Position numbers and translations under genes: made by a program
Assembly (NCBI GenBank): GCA_036526195.1
Contig: DATCYZ010000033.1
Location: forward strand, 110,153-174,152
DNA from: Burkholderiales bacterium
GTDB lineage: Bacteria > Pseudomonadota > Gammaproteobacteria > Burkholderiales > SG8-39
Length of the DNA: 64,000 nt
Reading direction: 5' to 3'
The notes under the pieces: generated by a model
Seen by the model: the letters and a program-made list of their open reading frames with translations, nothing else
What the model was told of the DNA's origin: nothing
Database searches by the model: none
Shown: positions 51,939 to 64,000 of the stretch, piece after piece
Position numbering within the stretch: position 1 is the first letter of the stretch
How the letters are laid out: each line of letters opens with the position of its first letter

Positions 51939-53396
51939 ATGGGCAAAATCACCGGATTCCTCGAGTTCGAACGCCTCGCCGAAGCCGCCGAGCCGCCGGA
52001 GGCGCGCACCCGGCATTACCGCGAGTTCGTGCTGCACCTCACCGACGCGCAGGCGGCGGTGCAGGGCGCGCGCTGCATGGACTGCGGCACGCCCTTCTGT
52101 ATGTCCGGCTGTCCGGTGAACAACATCATCCCGGACTTCAACGACCTTGTGTTTCGCGAGGATTGGCAGCGCGCGATCGAGACGCTGCACTCGACCAACA
52201 ACTTCCCGGAGTTCACCGGCCGCATCTGCCCGGCCCCCTGCGAGGAAGCCTGCGTCCTGCGCATCAACGACGATCCCGTGGGCATCAAGTCGATCGAGCA
52301 CGCGATCATCGACAAGGCCTTCGAGGAAGGCTGGGTGAAGCCGCTGCCCCCGGGAGTGAAGTCGGGCAAGCGCGTCGCCGTGGTCGGCTCGGGGCCGGCG
52401 GGGCTTGCCAGCGCGCAGCAACTCGCGCGCGCCGGCCATGAGGTGGTGGTGTTCGAGAAGAACGACCGCGTGGGCGGCCTGCTGCGCTACGGCATTCCGG
52501 ACTTCAAGATGGAGAAGTGGCTGATCGACCGGCGTGTCGAGCAGCTTCGGGCCGAGGGCGTCGTGTTTCGCACCAACCACGTGGTCGGACGCGCGCCGGT
52601 CGGCGCGGGCAATGCCGCGGCGACCGTGCTCGATGCGGCCACCATCGCCGATGAATTCGATGCCGTGGTGCTCGCGGGTGGCGCCGAGGTGCCGCGCGAC
52701 CTGCCGGTGCCGGGCCGCGAACTCGACGGCGTGCACTTCGCGATGGATTTCCTGCCGCTGCAGAACCGCCGCGTGGCCGGGGACACCGGCGTGGCCGACC
52801 TGTGGGCGAAGGACAAGCATGTCATTGTCATCGGCGGCGGCGACACCGGCTCGGACTGCGTCGGCACCTCGAACCGCCACGGCGCAAGATCGGTGACCCA
52901 GTTCGAGCTGCTGCCGATGCCGCCCGATCCCGAGGCCAACCCCGTCTGGCCGTACTGGCCGACACGGCTGCGCACGTCCTCCTCGCACGAGGAAGGCGTC
53001 GAGCGCGACTGGTCGGTGGCTACCAAGGCGCTGACCGGCAAGGACGGCCGGGTCACCGCCCTGCAGGGCGTGCGGCTCGAATGGAAGGACGGCAAACCCG
53101 TCGAGATCGCCGGCTCGGAATTCACCCTGCCGGCGGACCTCGTGCTGTTGGCGATGGGCTTCGTCTCGCCGGTGCAGTCGATGCTCGAATCCTTCGGCGT
53201 CGCCAGGGACGCGCGCGGCAACGCGCAGGCCGCCACCGAGGGCGCAGGCAGCTACCTCACCTCGGTGCCCAAGGTGTTCGCGGCAGGCGACATGCGCCGC
53301 GGCCAGTCGCTCGTGGTGTGGGCGATCCGCGAAGGGCGCCAGTGCGCGCGCGCGGTGGACGAGTTCCTCATGGGCACGTCGGTGCTTCCCCGCTAG
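51939..53396 (+). CDS. gltD: Glutamate synthase small subunit
   Basis: [56 protein letters not shown]. Confidence 0.97.
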
Positions 53397-53408
53397 GCCC
53401 GCACGCCG

Positions 53409-54050
53409 ATGAATGCGCCGCCGGTCGCCGCCGAGAGGCTCTCGGATGCGCAGATGCTCAAGCTTGGCGCGCACGGCATCACGCGCAGCTTCCCGAAGCA
53501 GACGATCGTCCTCAGCGAAGGCGACGAGACCGACGCGCTCTACATCGTCATCGAGGGCCGCCTCAAGGTCTTCGTCGCCGACGAGCACGGCCACGAGATC
53601 GTGCTCTCGACGCTCGGGGCGGGCGAATACTTCGGCGAGATGGTGCTCGACGGCGGGCCGCGCTCGGCCTCGGTCATGACGCTCGAGCAAAGCCGCCTGC
53701 TGACCGTGCCCAAGGCGCAGTTCCGTGACTTCGTCACGAAGAACCCGGCTTTTGCGCTGAGCCTGATCGACAAGTTGATCCGGCGCGTGCGCGCACTCAC
53801 CGCCCACGTGAAGAGCCTCGCGCTGATGGATGTCTACGGGCGCGTGGCGCACCTGCTGCTCGACCTCGCCGAAGAGAAGAACGGCAAGCTGGTGATCGGC
53901 GAGCGCCTGACGCAGCAGGACATCGCCAACCGCGTCGGCGCCTCGCGCGAGATGGTCGGGCGCATCCTCAAGGACCTCGCCGTCGGCGGATATATCTCCG
54001 TGTCCAAGGACGGCATCGTGCTGCACCGCAAACCACCGCTGCACTGGTAG
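53409..54050 (+). CDS. CRP/FNR-family transcriptional regulator
   Basis: cNMP cassette GEYFGEM..DGGPRSASV; HTH LTQQDIANRVGASREMVGR. Confidence 0.93.
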   Translation: MNAPPVAAERLSDAQMLKLGAHGITRSFPKQTIVLSEGDETDALYIVIEGRLKVFVADEHGHEIVLSTLGAGEYFGEMVLDGGPRSASVMTLEQSRLLTVPKAQFRDFVTKNPAFALSLIDKLIRRVRALTAHVKSLALMDVYGRVAHLLLDLAEEKNGKLVIGERLTQQDIANRVGASREMVGRILKDLAVGGYISVSKDGIVLHRKPPLHW

Positions 54051-54092
54051 CCGGGCGGTTTCGTGCTGCGGCGCGAGGGTGCAAAAGTCGCA

Positions 54093-54120
54093 GGAACTAA
54101 GGGCATTGCTTCGCTGTCTG
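54093..54120 (+). promoter_or_regulatory. Putative ECF/sigmaE-type promoter
   Basis: GGAACT-N17-GTCTG, ~50 nt upstream of the small ORF at 54173. Confidence 0.45.
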
Positions 54121-54172
54121 GAAACTCCGGAGGCGCGAGACTGTTGACGCCGGATTCCTCAGGGAGGCCGCC

Positions 54173-54373
54173 ATGTCATTCAGGGAGTTGCTCCAGGCCA
54201 TCGCGATGCTCGTTCCCACGCTGGTGGTGCTGATTGCTGCCGCAGTGTCGATGGGCCATTCTGACGATCGACCGAGCCTGTCCAACGATTCGGTTGCGTC
54301 GGCGCCCCGCGCCCCGTATCGGCACGCTCGATCCAGCTTCGCGGCGGACGCCGAGTACGACGAGGGGCAGTAA
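54173..54373 (+). CDS. Small hypothetical protein with an N-terminal hydrophobic helix
   Basis: Strong GGAGG RBS, IAMLVPTLVVLIAAAVSM hydrophobic stretch, acidic tail, ECF-like promoter. Confidence 0.6.
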   Translation: MSFRELLQAIAMLVPTLVVLIAAAVSMGHSDDRPSLSNDSVASAPRAPYRHARSSFAADAEYDEGQ

Positions 54374-54421
54374 CCGTTTCGTTCCGGCGCCGCTATACTT
54401 CACCGCCTCAGGGGGGGTTGC

Positions 54422-54577
54422 ATGGTCCGTGGCGGTGGACGCCGCAGGGTCTTGTTCTGCACCGGTGCGCTGCGCGCAGCGACCGTCGCGCCTCGTTTTC
54501 ATCTGCAGCCAAACCTCTGTCCCGAGCGCGCGAAGACGTCGCGGATCCTGCCGTGCGCCGACCGGGTGCCCGAATGA
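54422..54577 (+). pseudogene. Internally deleted / decayed relic of an ABC_sub_bind-type SBP gene
   Basis: Manual translation MVRGGGRRRVLFCTGAL...PRFHLQPNL...ILPCADRVPE*; last 21 nt GCCGACCGGGTGCCCGAATGA match the SBP 3' ends (GCCGACCGGGTGATCGAATGA); TATACT and a G-rich RBS upstream. Confidence 0.55.
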
Positions 54578-54677
54578 GGCGAGCGAGCAGCAGGGGCGCG
54601 GGCGCGGTCGAAAAGTTCCTGATCGGCAACAGTTCCGGCGCCGCGGCACCGGCGCTCCGATTCGCGCCGGGCGCCCA

Positions 54678-55661
54678 ATGACAACGCGGCGGGAGACGCT
54701 CAGGCTGGTGGCGGGCATCGGACTCTGTGCTGCGCTGGGCGCTCAGGCTGCCCGCTTGCCGCGGATCGGCTACCTGCTCCTCGGGCCGGTGTACGACACG
54801 CCCTCGGTCGAGCGGCGGGCGTTTCTCGATGGCTTGCGCGCGCTTGGCCATGTTGCCGACCGCACGATCGAGATCATCTACAAGTCCGCGGAGGGCGAGA
54901 CGGTTTTCCTCGATGCCACGATCCGGGAACTGATCGACCTGCGCCCGGATGTGATCGTTGTCAGCAGTGCGGTGACGCTGCTTGCGCTGAAAAAGGCGAC
55001 TCGCACGATTCCGATCGTCATGCTGGCGATTGGCGATCCGGTCGGGGTCGGCGCAGTTGCGTCGCTTGCGCGCCCCGGTGGAAACATTACGGGCGTGTCC
55101 TTCATTTCGAGCGATCTCGCGCAGAAGCGCGTGGAACTGTTGCGCGCGGTCGCGCCGCGTGCCCGGACGCTTGCGGTCCTCTGGGATATGCGTAACGCCA
55201 ATACACGGAACGAGTCGAAGGCGGTTGAGGTGGCGGCGCGCGGGCTCGGTTTTTCAATCCGACCGATGCCCATCCGGTCCGAGACGGACCTTGCGGCCGC
55301 GCTTGTCGCACTTGCGAGGAATCGACCGGATACCGTTTACGTCTGCTTCGAAGGCCAGATCGTCGGTTCGCACGGTGCGATCCTTGCCCAGTTCGGACTG
55401 GATAACCGCCTTCCCATGGTCGTGGGCTGGACGCCCCTCGTCGATGCCGGCGGCCTGATCGCCTACGCGCCCCACATGCCGGCGATCTTCGCGCGCGCCG
55501 CCTATTTCGTCGACCGCATCCTGAAAGGCGCGCGACCCGCCGAACTGCCGATCGAGTTGCCGACCCGGCTCGAGTTGGTGGTCAACCTGAAGACCGCCAA
55601 GGCGATCGGTACCGCGATCCCGGGCGATCTGCTGCTGCGCGCAGACCGGGTGATCGAATGA
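54678..55661 (+). CDS. Orphan ABC-type substrate-binding protein (ABC_sub_bind-like), copy 1
   Basis: RR-containing signal, RIGYL, GDPVGVGAVASLARPGGNITGVS, KRVELL, GGLIAY, VDRILKGARPAELPIELPT, LLLRADRVIE. Confidence 0.9.
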   Translation: MTTRRETLRLVAGIGLCAALGAQAARLPRIGYLLLGPVYDTPSVERRAFLDGLRALGHVADRTIEIIYKSAEGETVFLDATIRELIDLRPDVIVVSSAVTLLALKKATRTIPIVMLAIGDPVGVGAVASLARPGGNITGVSFISSDLAQKRVELLRAVAPRARTLAVLWDMRNANTRNESKAVEVAARGLGFSIRPMPIRSETDLAAALVALARNRPDTVYVCFEGQIVGSHGAILAQFGLDNRLPMVVGWTPLVDAGGLIAYAPHMPAIFARAAYFVDRILKGARPAELPIELPTRLELVVNLKTAKAIGTAIPGDLLLRADRVIE

Positions 55662-56626
55662 AACGTCGAGCGTTTCTGGCGGCCGCCTGCGTGCTTGCCG
55701 CCATGTCGCGGGGTCACGCGCAGTCCGTGCGGCGCCCGCCACGGATCGGAACCCTGAACTTCGGTGCGCCGCCTGCGCCCGGCGGCTCGGCAGACCCGAT
55801 CGAACGGCACCTCCGGATGCTCGGCTACGCGGAGCCCGGGCAGGTGGTGTTCGTACGGCGCTATGCGTCTGGCGATCGTTCGCACTTTCCCCGGCTTGCC
55901 GCCGAACTGCTGCGCGCGGACCTCGATCTGATCTTCACACCCGGATCCGACGTGGCGCGTACCTTCGCGCGGACCGACGTGCGTGTTCCGGTGGTATTCG
56001 TGGTCAGCGACGATCCGGTGGCGACCGGCCTGGTGCGCAGTCTCGGACGTCCGGCCGGCCGGTTCACCGGCATCTCCCTGATGTCACCCGAGCTCGGCCC
56101 CAAGCGGCTCGAACTGCTCGTCGAGGCATTGCCGCGCGCACGCAAGGTGGCCGTGTTGTATGACGAGAACCATGCGAAATACCTGACGGAGATGCGCGCG
56201 CCGGCGGCCAGCATGGGGATCACCCTCCTGCCCATCCGGTTCGACACCGTGGCCGATTTCGAGCCCGCATTCGCGTCGGCGAAACAGGGCGGCGCGGCCG
56301 CGATGTTCGTCGCGCCGAACCGGTTCACGCTCGCCTACGCTGCGCGCCTCGCCGCCCTCTCGATCGAGCACGGCATACCCGCGATCTCGGCCTACGACAG
56401 CTTTGCTGCGGCGGGCGGGCTGCTGTCTTACGGCCCGGTCGTCGATGACGCAGCCGCACGTGCCGCGTCGATCATCGACCGGATCCTCCGGGGCGCTGAT
56501 CCGGCCGATCTGCCGGTCGAGCAGCCGCCGCGGATCGCGCTCACGCTGAACCGGAAGGCCGCCCGCGCGCTCGCTATCGAGTTGCCAGCTTCGATGCTGC
56601 TGCGCGCCGACCGGGTGATCGAATGA
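55658..56626 (+). CDS. Orphan ABC-type substrate-binding protein (ABC_sub_bind-like), copy 2
   Basis: MKRRAFL twin-arginine-like signal, DPVATGLVRSLGRPAGRFTG, KRLELL, GGLLSYG, DRILRGADPADLPVEQP, LLRADRVIE. Confidence 0.9.
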   Translation: MKRRAFLAAACVLAAMSRGHAQSVRRPPRIGTLNFGAPPAPGGSADPIERHLRMLGYAEPGQVVFVRRYASGDRSHFPRLAAELLRADLDLIFTPGSDVARTFARTDVRVPVVFVVSDDPVATGLVRSLGRPAGRFTGISLMSPELGPKRLELLVEALPRARKVAVLYDENHAKYLTEMRAPAASMGITLLPIRFDTVADFEPAFASAKQGGAAAMFVAPNRFTLAYAARLAALSIEHGIPAISAYDSFAAAGGLLSYGPVVDDAAARAASIIDRILRGADPADLPVEQPPRIALTLNRKAARALAIELPASMLLRADRVIE

Positions 56627-56710
56627 ACAGACGCCTCGACCCGTGCCGCGCGCTTGTGGCTTCCCGATGATTCCCCTACCCTCTGCCCCACGGGCTTGGG
56701 AGGGCGCGTC

Positions 56711-59700
56711 ATGGCAAAAAGCTCGAAGGCGAAGCGGCAGCGACGGACCAAGGCGCAAGCGCCTCAGCGTCCCCGACAAAAGGTGAAGCCTACGACCCGC
56801 GACGGAGGTCTGCCTGCCCCGGAGGCCGCGCTGCTCGAGGCCCTGCCCGCCGCCATCGCGGTCTTCGACGCCGATCGACGGCTGGCGGTCTTCAACACCG
56901 CATTCGCAGAACTCGGGCTGTTTCCGAAGTCGCTGCTCAAACCGGGTCGCGCATTTTCCGAGTTCCAGCGCCGCGATGCGAGCCTGAGGCGCCGCGGGCC
57001 GGGGCCACACGAGGTGTCGCTTCCCGGTGGCCAGGTGCTGCAAGCAAGCAAGCGATCGTTGCCGGGGCGCCAGATCCTGCTTTGCTACGAGAACGTGACG
57101 GCGGAACGGCTTGCCGCGGAGCGCCTCGATCTCGTGACCCGGGCGAGCAGCGAGGGCACCTACGACTGGGACATCGTCAACGATACGATCTACTACTCGG
57201 ATCAGGTCTTCGAGGCGATCGGCCTGCGTCGCAAGGACGTGCCCGACGCAACGGCCTGGTACGAACGCATCCATCCTGACGACCAGCCCCGCTATAGCGA
57301 ACGCCTGCGCGCCCATTTCAGGGGCGAAACCGACCGCTTCGAAGTCGAAATTCGCTTCCGCGGCCCGAGGGGCGATTGGCGCTGGGCGCGACAGCACGGG
57401 ATCGGCATCCGCGATGCGCGGGGCAAGGTCGTGCGCATGGTCGGTTCCACCGGCGATATCGATCGCCTGAAGCGGCTCGAGCAGGCGCTCGCCGAAAGCG
57501 AGGCGCGCTACGCGCTCGCCACACGGGCCGCCACCGAAGGCATCTACGACTGGAACGTCGGAACCGGCGAGCTGTACCTGTCCGATCGCGCCAAGACGTT
57601 CTTTGCGATCAAGGGTCGCAAGCTCACGCCGGCGGTCTGGAGTTCGCGGATTCATGCGGAGGACCTTCCCGCATATCGCGCGGTGATGGCGCGCTACTTC
57701 AAGGGCGAGATACAGCAGTTCGAGCACGAGTACCGCATTCAAAGCGCATCCGGCAGTTACAACTGGATCCAGGATCGTGCCGTGGCAGAGAGAGGCGAAT
57801 CCGGACGCGTGCAACGGCTGGTCGGCGCGATCACCGACATTAGCGCGCGCAAGCAGGCCGAGATCGAACTCCTGCAGGCGCACGACGAGACTGCCGCCGC
57901 CCTCGAACGGCAGACGGCGACCGCGGAAATCCTGCGCGTCATCTCGGACTCGCCGACCGACGTGGCGCCGGTGCTCAAAGCCGTCGCCGAGCGGGCAGCA
58001 CGCATCTGCGACGCGCACACCGTGGACATTGTTCTGGCAGAGGGTCAATCGATGCGCATGTCGGCATCGGTCGGGAACATCGGCCGACCGGGTGCGGCCG
58101 AATCGATCCCCCTCAGCCGTGAAACCGTCATGGGTCGGGCGATTGTTGACCGGGCCGTTGTGCAGGTCGTGGATCTCCAGAATCCGCCGGAGGGCGAATA
58201 CGCTCTTGGGCGCGAGCTTGCGCGCAAGTACGGCCATCGCACCATCCTCGCGGTTCCGCTGCTGCGCGAAGGCCGCGCCCTCGGAGCCATTCTCGTGCGC
58301 AGGATCGAGGTGCGGCCGTTTGAAGACAAGCACATCTCGCTCCTGCGGACGTTTGCCGATCAGGCTGCAATCGCGATCGAGAACGTGCGCCTGTTCAACG
58401 AGACGAAAGAGGCGCTCGAGCGGCAGACGGCGACCGCGGATGTGCTAAAGGTCATCAGCAGCTCGGTTTCGGACACCAAGCCGGTGTTCGAGAAGATCAT
58501 CGACAGCTGCCAGGGGCTGATTCCCACGACGGACATCGTCGGGTTCACGTTCGATGATCGTTCTTTCGTGCATGTCGTCGCCACGCGCGGTCCGATGGCG
58601 GACGCGTTTGCAAACCACGCCGCGCGTCCGGTCGAAGAGACCTTCCTGACGCAGGCGCTGCATGAGCGGCGGGTGCGGGTCTATCCCGACCCGATCAACG
58701 GCGACGACGTGCCCGAACGCCTGCGCAAGTTGAGCGAGCAAATCGGCAACTTCTCCTGGGCCGTGGCGCCGATCCTGACCGAAACCCGCTGCGTCGGTTT
58801 TTTCACCATGACACGCAAGCAGGGTGAGGTGTTCGCAGACAAGGAGATCGATCTCCTCAAGGCCTTCGCCGACCAGGCGGCGATCGCGATCCAGAATTCG
58901 CGCCTGTTCAACGAGACGGAAGAAGCGCTCGAGCGTCAGACGGCGACCGCGGAGATCCTGCGGGTGATTTCCAGCACGCCAACCGATACGCAACCGGTTT
59001 TCGACGCGATCGCGGCCAGCGCCAGACGGCTGTGCGACGCAGGTGCCGTCGTCGTGCTGGGCTACGACGGACGGGTGATTGACGTCGCCGCCCTCGACTC
59101 CGTCAACGTGGAAGGGGCGCAGCAACTGCGCTCCGCGTTCCCCATGCCAGCCACGGGCGGGAGCGTATCCACCCGCGCGATCCTCAACCGCGAGGTCACG
59201 CAAGTCCCCGACGTGCTTGAAATCGAGAACTACGTCCTCGGCACCGCAGCCAACGCGATCGGCTATCGCAGCGTCCTGGCCGTCCCCATGCTGCGCGAAG
59301 GCCAACCGATCGGAGCGATCACTGTCACGCGCGCCATACCGGGCCTCTTCCCCGACCGGCAGGTCGAACTTCTCAGGGCCTTCGCCGACCAGGCCGTGAT
59401 CGCGATCGAGAACGTGCGTCTGTTCAACGAAACGAAGGAAGCGCTCGAGCGGCAGACGGCGACGGCCGAGATCCTCGCGGCGATGAGCGATTCGATGACG
59501 GACGCGCAGCCCGTGTTCGACGCCATCGTGCGCAACCTGCGCCGGCTGTTCGACACGCGCTTCGCGGTCGTTCAGCTGCTGAACGGGGAGACGATCGAGA
59601 TGCCGGCCGCGGACGGCGAGCCCGGGTTCGAGCGGCTCCGCGATCACTACCCCCGGCCCCTCGACCAAACCACGATCGGCGCCCAGACCATGTTGGCGAG

Positions 59701-61213
59701 ACGCGTCATCCAGTGCTCTCCGGTGATCGGCAACCCCGAGGCTGCGATCGGCACGCAGGCGTTCGCCCGCGAGTTCGGCTTCAACGCCGCGCTGTTCGCG
59801 CCGATGATCCGCGGCGAGGCGGTGATTGGCGTGATCGGCATCGCGCATCGCGAGCCGCGGGTCTTCGACGATGATGAAGTCGCGCTCATCAAGGCGTTTG
59901 CCGATCAGGCGGTGATCGCGATCGAGAACGTGCGGCTGTTCAACGAACTTAAATCGCGTACCGAAGCGCTCACCCGCTCGGTCGGTCAGCTCACCGCGTT
60001 GGGTGAAGTCGGCCAGGCGATCAGCGCGACACTGGACGTCGAGACGGTGCTGAAGACCATCGTTTCGCACGCCATGCGCCTGACCGGACTCGACGCAGGG
60101 GTGATATACGAATACGACATCGCCTCCGAGGGGTTCCAGTTGCGCGCGTCCGAGAATTTCGACGATGAAACCGTGGGCACGCTGCGTGGTGCGGAGTTGC
60201 GCGTCGGTGAGGGCGCGGTCGGCACCAGCGTCTCGGCGCGCAAGCCGACGCAGGTGCCCGACACCCACGCGCCCGGGTACCCGGCGCGCCTGCGCGAGAT
60301 GCTCGATGGCCCCGGGTTCCGGGCCGTGCTGGCGGTGCCGCTCCTGCGCGAAGAGCAGATTATTGGCGCGCTGATGATGCTGCGTCGCGCGCCGGGTCTG
60401 TTTCCAACGGAAGTCGTCGAGTTGCTCAGCACCTTCGCCTCGCAGTCGGCGCTGGCGATGCAGAATGCGCGCCTGTTCCGCGAGATCGGGGACAAGGGTC
60501 AGCAGCTCCAGGTCGCGAACCAGCACAAGTCGGAGTTCCTCGCCAACATGTCGCACGAACTGAGGACGCCACTGAACGCCATCATCGGCTTCTCGGAAGC
60601 GCTCGACGAGCGCTACTTCGGCGAGCTGACCGACAAGCAGGCCGAGTACGTGAAGGACATCCATGGCTCCGGCAAGCACCTGCTCTCGCTCATCAACGAC
60701 ATCCTCGACCTGTCCAAGATCGAGGCCGGGCGCATGGACCTCGACCTTGCCGAGTTCGACCTGCCCGGGGCGATCGACAATGCGCTCACACTGGTGCGAG
60801 AGCGCGCGCAGCGCCACGGCGTGCGCCTCGAGCATGAACTCGATCCGGCGCTCGGAACGGTGACGGCCGACGAGCGCAAGGTGAAGCAGATCCTGCTCAA
60901 CCTGCTCTCGAACGCGGTAAAGTTCACGCCGGAGGGCGGGCGCATCACGGTGCGCGGGAGGCCGAACGGAAACATGATCGAGGTGGCCGTCGTCGACACC
61001 GGCGTGGGCATCGCGCCCGAGGACCAAGCCGCGGTGTTCGAGGAGTTCAAGCAGGTCGGCAACGACGTGGCCGCAAAGGCACAGGGCACGGGGCTCGGCC
61101 TCGCCCTCACGAAACGCTTCGTCGAACTGCACGGCGGCACCATCGGCCTGGAAAGCGCGCCGGGCAAGGGATCCACCTTCATCTTCACGCTGCCCTTGCG
61201 CGGTGGCGAATGA
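56711..61213 (+). CDS. Cytoplasmic sensor histidine kinase with ~3 PAS, 5 GAF, HisKA and HATPase domains
   Basis: PAS motifs (IHPDD, EGIYDW), repeated LERQTATA...FADQAxIAIENxRLF GAF units, SHELRTPLN, NLLSNAVKF, DTGVG, GTGLGL; no TM helix seen. Confidence 0.93.
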   Translation: MAKSSKAKRQRRTKAQAPQRPRQKVKPTTRDGGLPAPEAALLEALPAAIAVFDADRRLAVFNTAFAELGLFPKSLLKPGRAFSEFQRRDASLRRRGPGPHEVSLPGGQVLQASKRSLPGRQILLCYENVTAERLAAERLDLVTRASSEGTYDWDIVNDTIYYSDQVFEAIGLRRKDVPDATAWYERIHPDDQPRYSERLRAHFRGETDRFEVEIRFRGPRGDWRWARQHGIGIRDARGKVVRMVGSTGDIDRLKRLEQALAESEARYALATRAATEGIYDWNVGTGELYLSDRAKTFFAIKGRKLTPAVWSSRIHAEDLPAYRAVMARYFKGEIQQFEHEYRIQSASGSYNWIQDRAVAERGESGRVQRLVGAITDISARKQAEIELLQAHDETAAALERQTATAEILRVISDSPTDVAPVLKAVAERAARICDAHTVDIVLAEGQSMRMSASVGNIGRPGAAESIPLSRETVMGRAIVDRAVVQVVDLQNPPEGEYALGRELARKYGHRTILAVPLLREGRALGAILVRRIEVRPFEDKHISLLRTFADQAAIAIENVRLFNETKEALERQTATADVLKVISSSVSDTKPVFEKIIDSCQGLIPTTDIVGFTFDDRSFVHVVATRGPMADAFANHAARPVEETFLTQALHERRVRVYPDPINGDDVPERLRKLSEQIGNFSWAVAPILTETRCVGFFTMTRKQGEVFADKEIDLLKAFADQAAIAIQNSRLFNETEEALERQTATAEILRVISSTPTDTQPVFDAIAASARRLCDAGAVVVLGYDGRVIDVAALDSVNVEGAQQLRSAFPMPATGGSVSTRAILNREVTQVPDVLEIENYVLGTAANAIGYRSVLAVPMLREGQPIGAITVTRAIPGLFPDRQVELLRAFADQAVIAIENVRLFNETKEALERQTATAEILAAMSDSMTDAQPVFDAIVRNLRRLFDTRFAVVQLLNGETIEMPAADGEPGFERLRDHYPRPLDQTTIGAQTMLARRVIQCSPVIGNPEAAIGTQAFAREFGFNAALFAPMIRGEAVIGVIGIAHREPRVFDDDEVALIKAFADQAVIAIENVRLFNELKSRTEALTRSVGQLTALGEVGQAISATLDVETVLKTIVSHAMRLTGLDAGVIYEYDIASEGFQLRASENFDDETVGTLRGAELRVGEGAVGTSVSARKPTQVPDTHAPGYPARLREMLDGPGFRAVLAVPLLREEQIIGALMMLRRAPGLFPTEVVELLSTFASQSALAMQNARLFREIGDKGQQLQVANQHKSEFLANMSHELRTPLNAIIGFSEALDERYFGELTDKQAEYVKDIHGSGKHLLSLINDILDLSKIEAGRMDLDLAEFDLPGAIDNALTLVRERAQRHGVRLEHELDPALGTVTADERKVKQILLNLLSNAVKFTPEGGRITVRGRPNGNMIEVAVVDTGVGIAPEDQAAVFEEFKQVGNDVAAKAQGTGLGLALTKRFVELHGGTIGLESAPGKGSTFIFTLPLRGGE
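57902..59947 (+). repeat. Periodic conserved GAF-linker DNA repeats inside the kinase gene
   Basis: ~89-nt near-identical blocks at 58352-58440, 58865-58953, 59381-59469; half copies at 57902-57927 and 59897-59947; period 513-516 nt. Confidence 0.85.
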
Positions 61214-63600
61214 GACCGAACGGCCCGGACCGGATGATCTGGCGCGGCGGCCTGTACCGGAAGTACGTCATCCTGATCATCTCGCTGGTGTCGGTCACGC
61301 TGCTGGTGAGCGGGGCGATCGGCATGTACCGCACCTGGCTGGAAACGCGCAGTGCCCTTCTGCTGATCGCGCGCGGCGAGGCGGCCACTGCCGCGGTGCG
61401 CATCGAGCAGTTCGTGCGCGAGATCGAGAACCAGATCGACTGGACTTCGCTGCCGCAGGTCGTGGAGGGCGTCAACCCGCTGGAAGCGCGCCGCTTCGAT
61501 TACTGGAAGCTGCTTCGCCTGGTGCCGGCAATCACGGAAGCCACCTGGATCGACGGCAAGGGAATCGAACAGCTGTCGGTCTCGCGCCTGAAGATGGAGG
61601 CGCTTGGCGCCGGGGCAGATCGTTCAGCGGAGCCGGCTTTCCAGGTCGCGAGCACCGGCAAGACCTGGTTCGGGCCGGTGTACTTCCGCAAGGAGACCGA
61701 GCCCTACATGGCGATCGCCATCCGGGCCGGGCGCGCCGGGGCCGGCGTCACGGTGGTCGAGGTGAACCTGAAGTTCATCTGGGAGGTGGTGCAGAAGATC
61801 CACGTCGGCAAGACCGGCTATGCCTACGTCGTGGACGCCAACGGTCTGCTGGTCTCGCACCCGGACATCAGCCTGGTTCTCCAGAAGACCACGCTCGCGG
61901 GCTTGCCGCAGGTGAGAGCCGCGCTTGCGTCGCCGGCCTCGCCGGGGACCGAGACGCCGCCCGACGCAAGCGAAGCCGTGGATCGCGCGGGACGCGAGGT
62001 GCTGTCGGCCTGGGCGAGGATCGATGCGCTCGGCTGGGCGGTATTCGTCGAGCAGCCTACCCAGGAGGCGTACGCGCCGCTCTATGCCACCGTGATGCGC
62101 ACCGCGCTGCTGCTCGTGGCCGGGCTGCTGCTGTCGATTCTTGCCGGGTTCGTCTTCGCGCGGCAGATGATCGGTCCGATCCGCAAGCTGCAGGAGGGCG
62201 CCGCGGCAATCGGCGGCGGCGACCTTGATCAGAAAATCGACGTGCGCACCGGTGACGAGTTGCAAGCGCTGGCCGAGCAGTTCAACGCCATGGCGGCGAA
62301 GCTGGGCGAGTCCTACGCGGGCCTCGAGCGCAAGGTGGAGGCGCGCACTGCGGAATTGCAGGAGTCGCTAGACCAGCAGCAGGCCTCGGCCGAGGTGCTG
62401 GGGGTGATCAGCAGCTCGATCTCGGACACCGCGCCGGTGTTCGACAAGATCATCGAAAGCTGCGAACGGCTGTTTTCGGGGCGGATCGTCGGGCTGAACC
62501 TCGTCGGCGAGGACGGGCTGATCCGCATCGGCGCCTACCACGGCCCCCACCGGGAGGACTTCGAGCGGATCTTCCCGCTGCCGGTGACGCGCGACTCCGG
62601 CTCCGGGCTTGCGATTCTCGAGCGCCGGGTGATCCACTACCCGGACGTCGACAACGGCGAGGAGGTGCCGGCCGCCACGCGGCAGGGCTGCCAGTCGATC
62701 GGCATCCGCGCGGCGATCTTCGCGCCGATGCTGTGGGAATCGCGCGGCCTGGGGGCGATCTTCGTCGGCCGCGACCACGCGCGCGGGTTCTCGGAAAAGG
62801 AGGTGGCGCTGCTGCGCACCTTCGCCGACCAGGCCGTGATTGCCATCCAGAACGTGCGCCTGTTCCACGAGATCGAGGAAAAGAGCCACCAGCTGGAGGT
62901 GGCCAACCAGCACAAGTCCGAGTTCCTCGCCAACATGTCGCACGAGCTGAGGACGCCGCTGAACGCCATCATCGGCTTCTCGGAAGCGCTCGACGAGCGT
63001 TATTTCGGCGAGCTGACGGACAAGCAGGCCGAGTACGTGAAGGACATCCACGCCTCCGGCCGGCACCTGCTTTCGCTCATCAACGACATCCTCGACCTTT
63101 CGAAGATCGAGGCCGGGCGCATGGACCTGGACCTCGCGGAGTTCGACCTGCCGGCGGCGATCGACAACGCGCTGACGCTGGTGCGCGAGCGCGCGCAGCG
63201 CCACGGGCTCGCCCTGTCGCGCGAACTCGATCCCGCGCTGGGCACCGTGCGCGCGGACGAGCGCAAGCTGAAGCAGATCCTGCTCAACCTGCTCTCCAAC
63301 GCGGTGAAGTTCACGCCCGAGGGCGGCAGCGTTTCGGTGCACGCGAAGCCGATTAACGGCATGATCGAAGTCGCGGTGACCGACACCGGCGTCGGCATCG
63401 CACCCGAGGACCAGGCCGCGGTGTTCGAGGAGTTCAAGCAGGTTGGCAACGACTACACGCGCAAGGGCGAAGGCACCGGGCTCGGGCTCTCGCTCACCAA
63501 ACGCTTCGTCGAACTGCACGGCGGCGAACTGCGCCTCGAAAGCACGCCCGGCAAGGGCTCCACCTTCACCTTCACGCTACCGGTGCGCCATGGCCAATGA
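61210..63600 (+). CDS. Membrane sensor histidine kinase: TM-dCache-TM-HAMP-GAF-HisKA-HATPase
   Basis: Two TM helices, GPVYFRKETEPYM and GYAYVVDANGLLVSHPD Cache motifs, HAMP (DELQALAEQFNAM), GAF, SHELRTPLN; start 61210 or 61234. Confidence 0.93.
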   Translation: MRPNGPDRMIWRGGLYRKYVILIISLVSVTLLVSGAIGMYRTWLETRSALLLIARGEAATAAVRIEQFVREIENQIDWTSLPQVVEGVNPLEARRFDYWKLLRLVPAITEATWIDGKGIEQLSVSRLKMEALGAGADRSAEPAFQVASTGKTWFGPVYFRKETEPYMAIAIRAGRAGAGVTVVEVNLKFIWEVVQKIHVGKTGYAYVVDANGLLVSHPDISLVLQKTTLAGLPQVRAALASPASPGTETPPDASEAVDRAGREVLSAWARIDALGWAVFVEQPTQEAYAPLYATVMRTALLLVAGLLLSILAGFVFARQMIGPIRKLQEGAAAIGGGDLDQKIDVRTGDELQALAEQFNAMAAKLGESYAGLERKVEARTAELQESLDQQQASAEVLGVISSSISDTAPVFDKIIESCERLFSGRIVGLNLVGEDGLIRIGAYHGPHREDFERIFPLPVTRDSGSGLAILERRVIHYPDVDNGEEVPAATRQGCQSIGIRAAIFAPMLWESRGLGAIFVGRDHARGFSEKEVALLRTFADQAVIAIQNVRLFHEIEEKSHQLEVANQHKSEFLANMSHELRTPLNAIIGFSEALDERYFGELTDKQAEYVKDIHASGRHLLSLINDILDLSKIEAGRMDLDLAEFDLPAAIDNALTLVRERAQRHGLALSRELDPALGTVRADERKLKQILLNLLSNAVKFTPEGGSVSVHAKPINGMIEVAVTDTGVGIAPEDQAAVFEEFKQVGNDYTRKGEGTGLGLSLTKRFVELHGGELRLESTPGKGSTFTFTLPVRHGQ

Positions 63601-63976
63601 AACCATCCTGATCGTCGAAGACAACGACAAGAACATGAAGCTTGCCCGCGACGTGCTGCAGGCAAAGGGCTACCGCACGCTGGAGGCCGTCACGGCGGGC
63701 GAAGGCGTGGCCGCCGCGGCGCAAAAACCGGACCTCGTGCTGATGGACATCCAGCTGCCCGATTTCAGCGGCATCGAGGCGCTCGGCAAGCTGCGCGCGG
63801 AGGCGGCCACGAAGGACATCCCGGTGATTGCCTTCACCGCCTCGGTGATGGAGCACAACCGCCACCAGATCATGGCCGCCGGGTTCGACGCCTTCATCTC
63901 CAAGCCGATCAACCTGAAGGAGTTCTTCGCCACGATCGCGGCGACGCTGGCGAAGCGCGGCGGGGGCACATCGTGA
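63590..63976 (+). CDS. Single-domain response regulator (DivK/CheY-like receiver)
   Basis: ILIVEDN, LVLMDIQLP, IAFTA, ISKPI. Confidence 0.93.
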   Translation: MANETILIVEDNDKNMKLARDVLQAKGYRTLEAVTAGEGVAAAAQKPDLVLMDIQLPDFSGIEALGKLRAEAATKDIPVIAFTASVMEHNRHQIMAAGFDAFISKPINLKEFFATIAATLAKRGGGTS

Positions 63977-64000
63977 ACGACAAGCCCCGCGTGCTTGTGG
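63973..64000 (+). CDS. Start of the next gene, probably with an N-terminal receiver domain (partial)
   Basis: GTGA overlap; translates VNDKPRVLV, typical of a receiver beta-1 strand; only 9 codons visible. Confidence 0.45.

Follow-up and report, generated by a model that had tools for sequence, protein, structure and literature searches.

Substrate-Binding Proteins Encoded Beside a dCache Sensor Kinase as Candidate Exchangeable Sensing Heads in a Burkholderiales Bacterium

Introduction

Sensor kinases that are activated by a periplasmic substrate-binding protein (SBP) include LuxP-LuxQ of Vibrio and HptA-HptS of Staphylococcus aureus, which a review on SBP-stimulated receptors describes as having dCache-like sensors (PMC8050422). 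The receptor classes that it treats are chemoreceptors, kinases, GGDEF-EAL proteins, and Ser/Thr kinases; class III nucleotide cyclases are not included, and the SBP family PF04392 does not occur in its main text. The locus considered here has two PF04392 genes (SBP1 and SBP2) upstream of two histidine kinases (HK1 and HK2), the second with a dCache_1 domain, followed by a stand-alone receiver and a receiver fused to a class III nucleotide cyclase. It comes from a Burkholderiales bacterium (assembly GCA_036526195.1, contig DATCYZ010000033.1; G000:C33:110153-174152) whose genome, G000, is 82% complete at 3.17 Mb, and "the window" means the whole 64,000-nucleotide stretch that was analyzed. As is expected of an SBP-stimulated sensor kinase, the locus places the gene of an exported SBP next to that of a membrane receptor whose sensor domain lies in the periplasm. 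We propose, with a probability of roughly 0.7, that the SBPs serve in the periplasm as exchangeable sensing heads, docking on the dCache domain of HK2, setting its kinase activity, and thereby signaling to the cyclase and to a CRP-family regulator.

The locus both resembles and departs from the described systems. Like LuxP-LuxQ and HptA-HptS, it encodes a periplasmic SBP beside a kinase with a dCache-type sensor, and SBP1 is predicted to touch both subunits of the sensor, much as in the bridging mode described for HptA. Unlike those two systems, which have one SBP per receptor, there are two SBPs in the locus, five in the genome, and up to 101 elsewhere; the SBPs belong to PF04392, and the same sensor family drives either kinases or, directly, a cyclase. 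Several SBPs also feed one receptor in the case of Escherichia coli Trg, according to the same review (PMC8050422), but Trg is a chemoreceptor whose SBPs come from unrelated transport operons, whereas we infer a dedicated paralog family free of transporters. In NspS-MbaA and ScrB-ScrC, as that review describes them (PMC8050422), an SBP gates a second-messenger enzyme through a dCache-like domain; those enzymes act on cyclic di-GMP, whereas the output here would be a class III nucleotide cyclase together with CRP. No description of PF04392 proteins as receptor partners, or of an expansion to as many as 101 copies, was found in the full-text literature searched, which held few subscription papers and no supplementary files.

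Results

All genes of the locus lie on the + strand in the order gltB-gltD, crp, a 66-residue open reading frame (ORF), SBP1, SBP2, HK1, HK2, receiver, receiver-cyclase, glmU, and glmS (Table 1). ATGA overlaps join SBP1 to SBP2 and HK1 to HK2, a GTGA overlap joins the receiver to the receiver-cyclase, and the gap between SBP2 and HK1 is 84 bp. A preliminary description made from the sequence had seen two full SBP genes, with no permease or ATPase nearby, upstream of the kinases on a single strand with such overlaps or short gaps. This layout is borne out by the gene positions, by Pfam, and by a survey of the interval from gltD to glmU, which holds no permease or ATPase gene. Pfam likewise agrees with the domains it had assigned (three PAS and five GAF in HK1, dCache-HAMP-GAF in HK2, and the receivers). 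The start it gave, 54422, has to be moved, as the first SBP gene begins at 54678, and of its SBP array two adjacent genes stand, a pair of 33% identity with no larger array around it.

The linkage between SBPs and sensor extends well beyond this genome. Judged by similarity searches, the periplasmic region of HK2 defines a large conserved family (6631 matches at an expect value (E) of 1e-20 among 8000 scored candidates), and HK2 is the conserved core of the system. A GTDB scan returned only 19 loci because it was queried with one protein; in 13 of these an SBP of the same clade as SBP1 and SBP2, called the orphan clade below, lies within 1 kb of the dCache gene. The loci are labeled as beta- and alphaproteobacteria, Acidobacteriota, Binatota, Chloroflexota, and a deltaproteobacterium, labels that can err for metagenome-assembled genomes. 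One locus (L036) labeled Enterobacteriaceae has an SBP that groups with a Binatia SBP and a dCache domain that aligns closely with the Binatia one, and is possibly from a mislabeled bin. Among metagenome loci, for which the best 80 of 568 confirmed loci were taken, 37 have an SBP, in 30 cases ending no more than 400 bp upstream on the same strand; a cyclase is present in 27, crp in five, and a permease in none. The SBP density in these dCache-centered loci (70 matches in 572 kb, or about 122 per Mb, fragments included) compares with 5 in the 3.17 Mb of G000 and 101 in the 7.3 Mb of the richest genome. The arrangement is far beyond chance.

The linkage is also specific for this sensor. In five distant genomes an SBP adjoins 12 of 16 dCache matches, among the matches listed. 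Five of seven dCache-family kinases in G035 have an SBP within 5 kb, versus 0 of 63 other kinases, and G033 has only two SBPs, both flanking the one dCache kinase among its 22 kinases. A general attraction of SBPs to any kinase was not seen in the three genomes tested (G035, G033, and G031). The enrichment next to kinases that the preliminary description had anticipated is thus strong beside one dCache_1 family and does not extend to kinases in general. In Ruegeria (L038) a two-gene version has an SBP followed by a dCache-HAMP-cyclase, and therefore the linkage follows the sensor domain and not the output. Across 121 genomes of the bacterial family, whose members as kin are not independent, 39 have both SBP and sensor, four the sensor only, 16 the SBP only, and 62 neither, so that 39 of 43 sensor-positive genomes carry an SBP.

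The SBPs themselves are clear family members set apart from the known transport proteins. SBP1 and SBP2 score 152.8 and 117.2 bits against PF04392 (curated cut-off 25.9), and the AlphaFold2 model of SBP1, with a predicted local distance difference test (pLDDT) value of 94.6, has the class I SBP fold of 3LFT and 3LKV at a template modeling (TM) score of 0.84-0.85. Their leaders carry what we take to be the twin-arginine motif, and of 104 aligned relatives, 67 have RR among their first 12 residues. Like TrpX, CD0873, VC_1101, and SP1069 (3LFT, 3LKV, and 6HNI), they belong to this Pfam family and fold (TM 0.80-0.85, about 25% identity). The ligands of these solved relatives are Trp, Phe, and Tyr (PMC6816091, PMC10443332), and trpX of S. 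suis shares a transcript with permease and ATPase genes (PMC9382623). Unlike these proteins, the SBPs of the locus have no permease or ATPase partner, form a separate clade, and show a different conserved surface. The NCBIfam TrpX model, with a cut-off of 390, gives 124 bits for SBP1 and 88.9 for SBP2, and on these scores the SBPs do not qualify for membership in the TrpXYZ importer.

A canonical permease, taken from the operon of G030 (L007) and used in tblastn at E 1e-3, was matched in two of 31 related genomes. No TrpY-type permease was matched in G000 (82% complete), and none was found in G004 (100% complete, five SBP copies), in G010 (98%, 10 copies), or in G031, G032, G033, and G035. It is present in G005 and, alone among the five distant genomes, in G034, with adjacent SBPs of its own. 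In a sample across the phylum a permease lies within 1.5 kb of the top-scoring PF04392 genes in 11 of 14 genomes. An SBP tree of 125 rows, all kept (104 orphan-clade and 21 canonical; quick mode, with many open forks), sets the 21 canonical rows apart at a branch of support 100, with every one of the five G000 copies on the opposite side. Where a permease exists, the SBPs adjacent to it group with the canonical clade (support 100). The 61 positions that canonical SBPs conserve include 29 that the orphan clade has lost, among them Q102, D142, E173, N227, and Y267; the last aligns with Tyr-262/Gln-284, to which specificity is ascribed in VC_1101 and SP1069 (PMC6816091). A transport role was rejected as the principal explanation on the TrpX scores, the permease searches, and the clade separation. 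The preliminary description had regarded a co-evolving cognate permease elsewhere as one observation that would speak against a sensory role, and none was found in G000 or its near-complete relatives.

Structure prediction offers a candidate mode of contact. SBP1 residues 26-327 were modeled with two copies of the dCache domain using custom alignments, and the complex scored 0.70 against 0.00 for the best of three controls. A mark of 0.70 is reached by 116 of 157 solved complexes and by two of 215 mismatched pairs, which is only a rough guide for a dimer modeled from custom alignments. The model runs agree on at least 94% of contacts, with partner pLDDT of at least 85, and the model supports SBP1-dCache binding at the level of a prediction. 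SBP1 is predicted to bind the membrane-distal part of one dCache subunit and to touch the second. The predicted interface comprises residues 129-132, 143-153, 289-298, and 316-325 of SBP1 and residues 88-99, 117-122, 153-156, 178-187, and 211-216 of the dCache domain, with 73-76 and 167 of the other subunit. Together with the permease searches and the enrichment, this model supports the earlier proposal that the SBPs are sensory inputs for the dCache kinase rather than transport components; because one SBP was modeled, we keep the words "interchangeable" and "ligand-sensing" conditional.

Alignment of the SBPs indicates that the predicted docking face is conserved in the orphan clade and variable in transporter-linked SBPs. 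Mean pairwise identity over the 27 SBP interface positions is 0.52 in the 104 orphan-clade rows (0.39 overall) and 0.23 in the 21 canonical rows (0.44 overall). Entropy at the interface versus the rest is 1.61 versus 2.19 in the orphan clade and 2.33 versus 1.50 in canonical SBPs, and the dCache interface is also more conserved than the remainder of that domain (0.97 versus 1.49). Consensus docking residues are matched at 18 of 27 positions by SBP2, 16 by SBP1, and 18-19 by the three dispersed G000 copies, versus 2-9 in canonical rows. Direct amino-acid sensors of the dCache_1AA type carry the motif YxxxxRxW...Y...D (PMC8915833), and YxxxxRxW, its N-terminal half, is found in 0 of 101 rows.

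Genomes differ widely in how many SBPs they hold and where. Copy numbers range from 2 to 101 in the distant genomes. A recent tandem duplication of SBP1 and SBP2 was rejected, as the two are 33% identical and lie in different subclades, SBP2 not being the sister of SBP1 in the tree. The closest relative of SBP2 (63%) is a solitary gene in G010, and copies would therefore move between locus and solitary sites. The solitary G000 copies (L002:3819-4814, L003:3885-4862, and L003:11556-12533) have metabolic neighbors, and two of them have about 1 kb lacking called genes on one or both sides. In G034 an array of orphan-clade SBPs of about 45 kb, the majority of its members full length with fragments scattered among them, runs straight up to a dCache kinase, receiver, and receiver-cyclase (L150-L152; G034:C19:376000-436000). 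Large arrays (L150-L152), like the genomes G001, G007, and G099, commonly contain fragments and stop-containing copies.

On the output side, the preliminary description had the kinases converge on one receiver, and this did not hold: there are two, the second fused to a class III cyclase, with crp in the conserved neighborhood. HK1 has no N-terminal hydrophobic segment and one marginal hydropathy peak inside its GAF region, which makes a cytoplasmic location likely. Close loci such as L024, L045, and L047 have no PAS-GAF kinase of its type, and HK1 looks like a lineage-specific insert; on these two counts it was rejected as the partner of the SBPs. The dimerization and histidine phosphotransfer (DHp) regions of HK1 and HK2 share 68 of 70 residues and, in the DNA, 196 of 210 bases, a likeness that falls to 43% identity for the next-best kinase of G000, and the kinase cores (60515-61204 and 62902-63591) share 86% protein identity, pointing to recent duplication or gene conversion. 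DHp helices usually set receiver specificity. With regions this similar, HK1 and HK2 would address the same receivers, and HK1 would therefore add cytoplasmic inputs.

The receiver-cyclase (L001:12126-13226), aligned with CyaB (3R5G), keeps two Asp and an Asn/Arg pair, which we take to be the metal-binding and catalytic-site residues. The presumed base-selecting pair, Lys and Thr in CyaB and Glu and Gly in 2W01, is His and Gly in this enzyme, and most of its relatives combine Arg or His with Gly or Ala. The adenine-selecting Lys and Thr/Asp of class III adenylate cyclases are thus absent from it. A crp-like match lies near the dCache kinase in L014, L024, L031, L157, and L158, and the Crp-family regulator likely reads the cyclase product.

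Table 1. Features of the locus, in window positions
Feature	Position	Strand	Basis
Crp-family regulator (cNMP_binding + HTH_Crp_2)	53409-54050	+	Pfam
66-residue ORF, hydrophobic N-terminus, good ribosome site	54173-54373	+	
SBP1, PF04392 (E 1.6e-44), twin-arginine-type leader	54678-55661	+	Pfam
SBP2, PF04392 (E 1.1e-33), twin-arginine-type leader	55658-56626	+	Pfam
HK1: partial PAS_7, two PAS_3, five GAF, HisKA, HATPase_c	56711-61213	+	Pfam
HK2: dCache_1, HAMP, GAF, HisKA, HATPase_c; two hydropathy peaks	61210-63600	+	Pfam
Predicted SBP docking face of dCache domain, codons (residues 73-216 from ATG 61234)	61450-61881	+	Model
Stand-alone receiver	63590-63976	+	Pfam
Receiver-class III nucleotide cyclase, 366 residues	63973-65073; first 28 bases (63973-64000) inside window	+	Pfam

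HK2 is 796 residues long, its periplasmic domain covers about residues 38-296, and an ATG at 61234 is an alternative start. The 66-residue ORF has no Pfam match, and a promoter and terminator scan of 53300-57000 gave no match. Both here and in G004 (L014:8260-8787, L014:9971-10264, and L013:1597-2061), the stretch from crp to the SBP/kinase genes contains small ORFs whose N-termini resemble leaders; they are possible CRP targets. Among public runs, 18 from studies of soil, estuary, and sediment contain at least half of the words sampled from the locus DNA, and the source run may be one of these. Two RNA runs have 8-14% of sampled words in common with the locus, with no sign of expression.

Discussion

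In the mechanism that we favor, each SBP would bind its own small molecule in a variable pocket, and closure of the SBP on its ligand would alter the dCache dimer, a change that HAMP would relay to kinase output. HK2 and the cytoplasmic HK1, with their near-identical phosphotransfer helices, would phosphorylate the same two receivers; the receiver-cyclase would make a cyclic nucleotide, and the neighboring CRP would read it. The three dispersed G000 copies would use the same single receptor in trans.

A number of observations weigh against this account. At the locus itself HK1 stands between the SBPs and HK2, three of the five G000 copies stand alone among unrelated genes, and the syntenic pilQ-aroKB-gltBD-crp site in G001 has kinase and cyclase with no SBP. 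No SBP match was found in 43 of the 80 metagenome and six of the 19 GTDB loci. Solitary copies and SBP-free sensor loci fit action in trans and equally fit drift. The complex model covers SBP1 alone and may echo solved SBP-dCache complexes such as LuxP-LuxQ; a profile search returned no LuxQ or HptS chain, and the fold matches listed are at most 20% identical. The orphan-clade conservation test is partly circular, as it uses the alignments of the model, and it pools buried and exposed residues; the contrast with canonical SBPs is not circular. The product of the cyclase is uncertain because of the His and Gly at its base-selecting positions. In addition, G000 encodes 28 other PF02653 permeases and is 82% complete.

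Sensor and SBP also part company in some genomes. The sensor was not matched in 16 of 55 SBP-positive family genomes, among them G007, which is 99% complete and has 15 PF04392 matches, several of them partial. In genus g8, eight of nine genomes have SBPs and one has the sensor, leaving seven SBP-only genomes. SBP-only genomes mostly hold 1-3 copies, in keeping with assembly gaps or with decay once the receptor was lost; a second partner of another kind is conceivable. In G007, six of the 15 first-ranked SBP loci and four further regions were inspected for an alternative receptor, and no membrane sensor was identified. The distance from one G007 SBP to a PAS-repeat cyclase, a member of the same cyclase family, is 1.3 kb (L141:965-4886; G007:C54). 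Conversely, four of 43 sensor-positive genomes have no SBP match, with 18 candidates scored per genome, and in three of the four the sensor is divergent and adjoins a regulator gene of another kind, a cyclase being absent. This divergent dCache branch (L154, L155, and L156 in G040, G085, and G062) is convergent to a different response regulator, has a common neighboring gene and no SBP nearby, and may have lost its SBP partner.

These observations leave room for other explanations, of which the one nearest to ours holds that only the locus-linked SBPs are working partners, one or two to a receptor, the remaining copies being drifting duplicates or ligand-free modulators rather than a many-input repertoire. 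It would account for the fragments and stop-containing copies, for SBPs kept in 16 genomes without a detected sensor, and for a complex model that reaches no further than SBP1. In G000, though, the dispersed SBPs match as many docking residues as the locus copies and far more than canonical proteins; the G034 array members are mostly full length, and the solitary relative of SBP2 in G010 argues that copies move between sites. We consider this explanation unlikely.

Another alternative is that small-molecule sensing is done by the dCache domain itself and that the SBPs are merely co-regulated cargo, for instance ligand buffers or scavengers under CRP, that do not dock at all. Most studied dCache domains do bind ligands directly (PMC8050422), invariant residues are kept in the distal dCache module, and about half of the sensor loci, including the syntenic G001 locus, lack an SBP. 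Yet simple co-regulation sits poorly with the complex score, with an SBP surface conserved in a clade-specific way, and with an adjacency that persists across kinase and cyclase outputs and in loci with no crp match; the amino-acid motif, the only direct-binding motif examined, is also missing. Direct sensing without docking therefore strikes us as quite improbable. We give the least credence to ordinary transport through a permease encoded elsewhere, be it in the unassembled part of the genome or in a LivH/LivM-type system. The fold and family of TrpX, CD0873, VC_1101, and SP1069, the incompleteness of G000 with its many PF02653 permeases, and the canonical permease of G034 and G005 are what speak for it. 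Against these stand the lack of a TrpY-type permease match in near-complete G004 and G010 and in four of the distant genomes, the placement of permease-adjacent SBPs in the canonical clade, TrpX scores far below the cut-off, and the permease-free metagenome loci.

Exchangeable sensing heads on a dCache receptor remain the reading that we prefer for the locus. A broader version, to which we would give even odds, is that the whole orphan clade of PF04392 has left transport and forms a germ-line repertoire of sensing heads, numbering between one and about 100 per genome, linked or scattered, that share a conserved docking face and differ in their pockets. This repertoire would serve a few receptors of a single dCache family with kinase or cyclase outputs, leading here to CRP by way of a cyclase whose base-selecting residues are non-standard. 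Because a named Ruegeria strain has the two-gene version, an SBP with a dCache-HAMP-cyclase, the idea is open to a direct test. If it is true, PF04392 would join the receptor-stimulating SBP families and class III cyclases would join their outputs, and thousands of soil and sediment genes annotated as "ABC transporter substrate-binding protein" would be signaling receptors, with the transport capacity inferred from such annotations overstated. The separation of sensing in the SBP pocket from relay through one dCache face would amount to a natural modular biosensor platform and to a little-noticed way for environmental bacteria to broaden what they sense.

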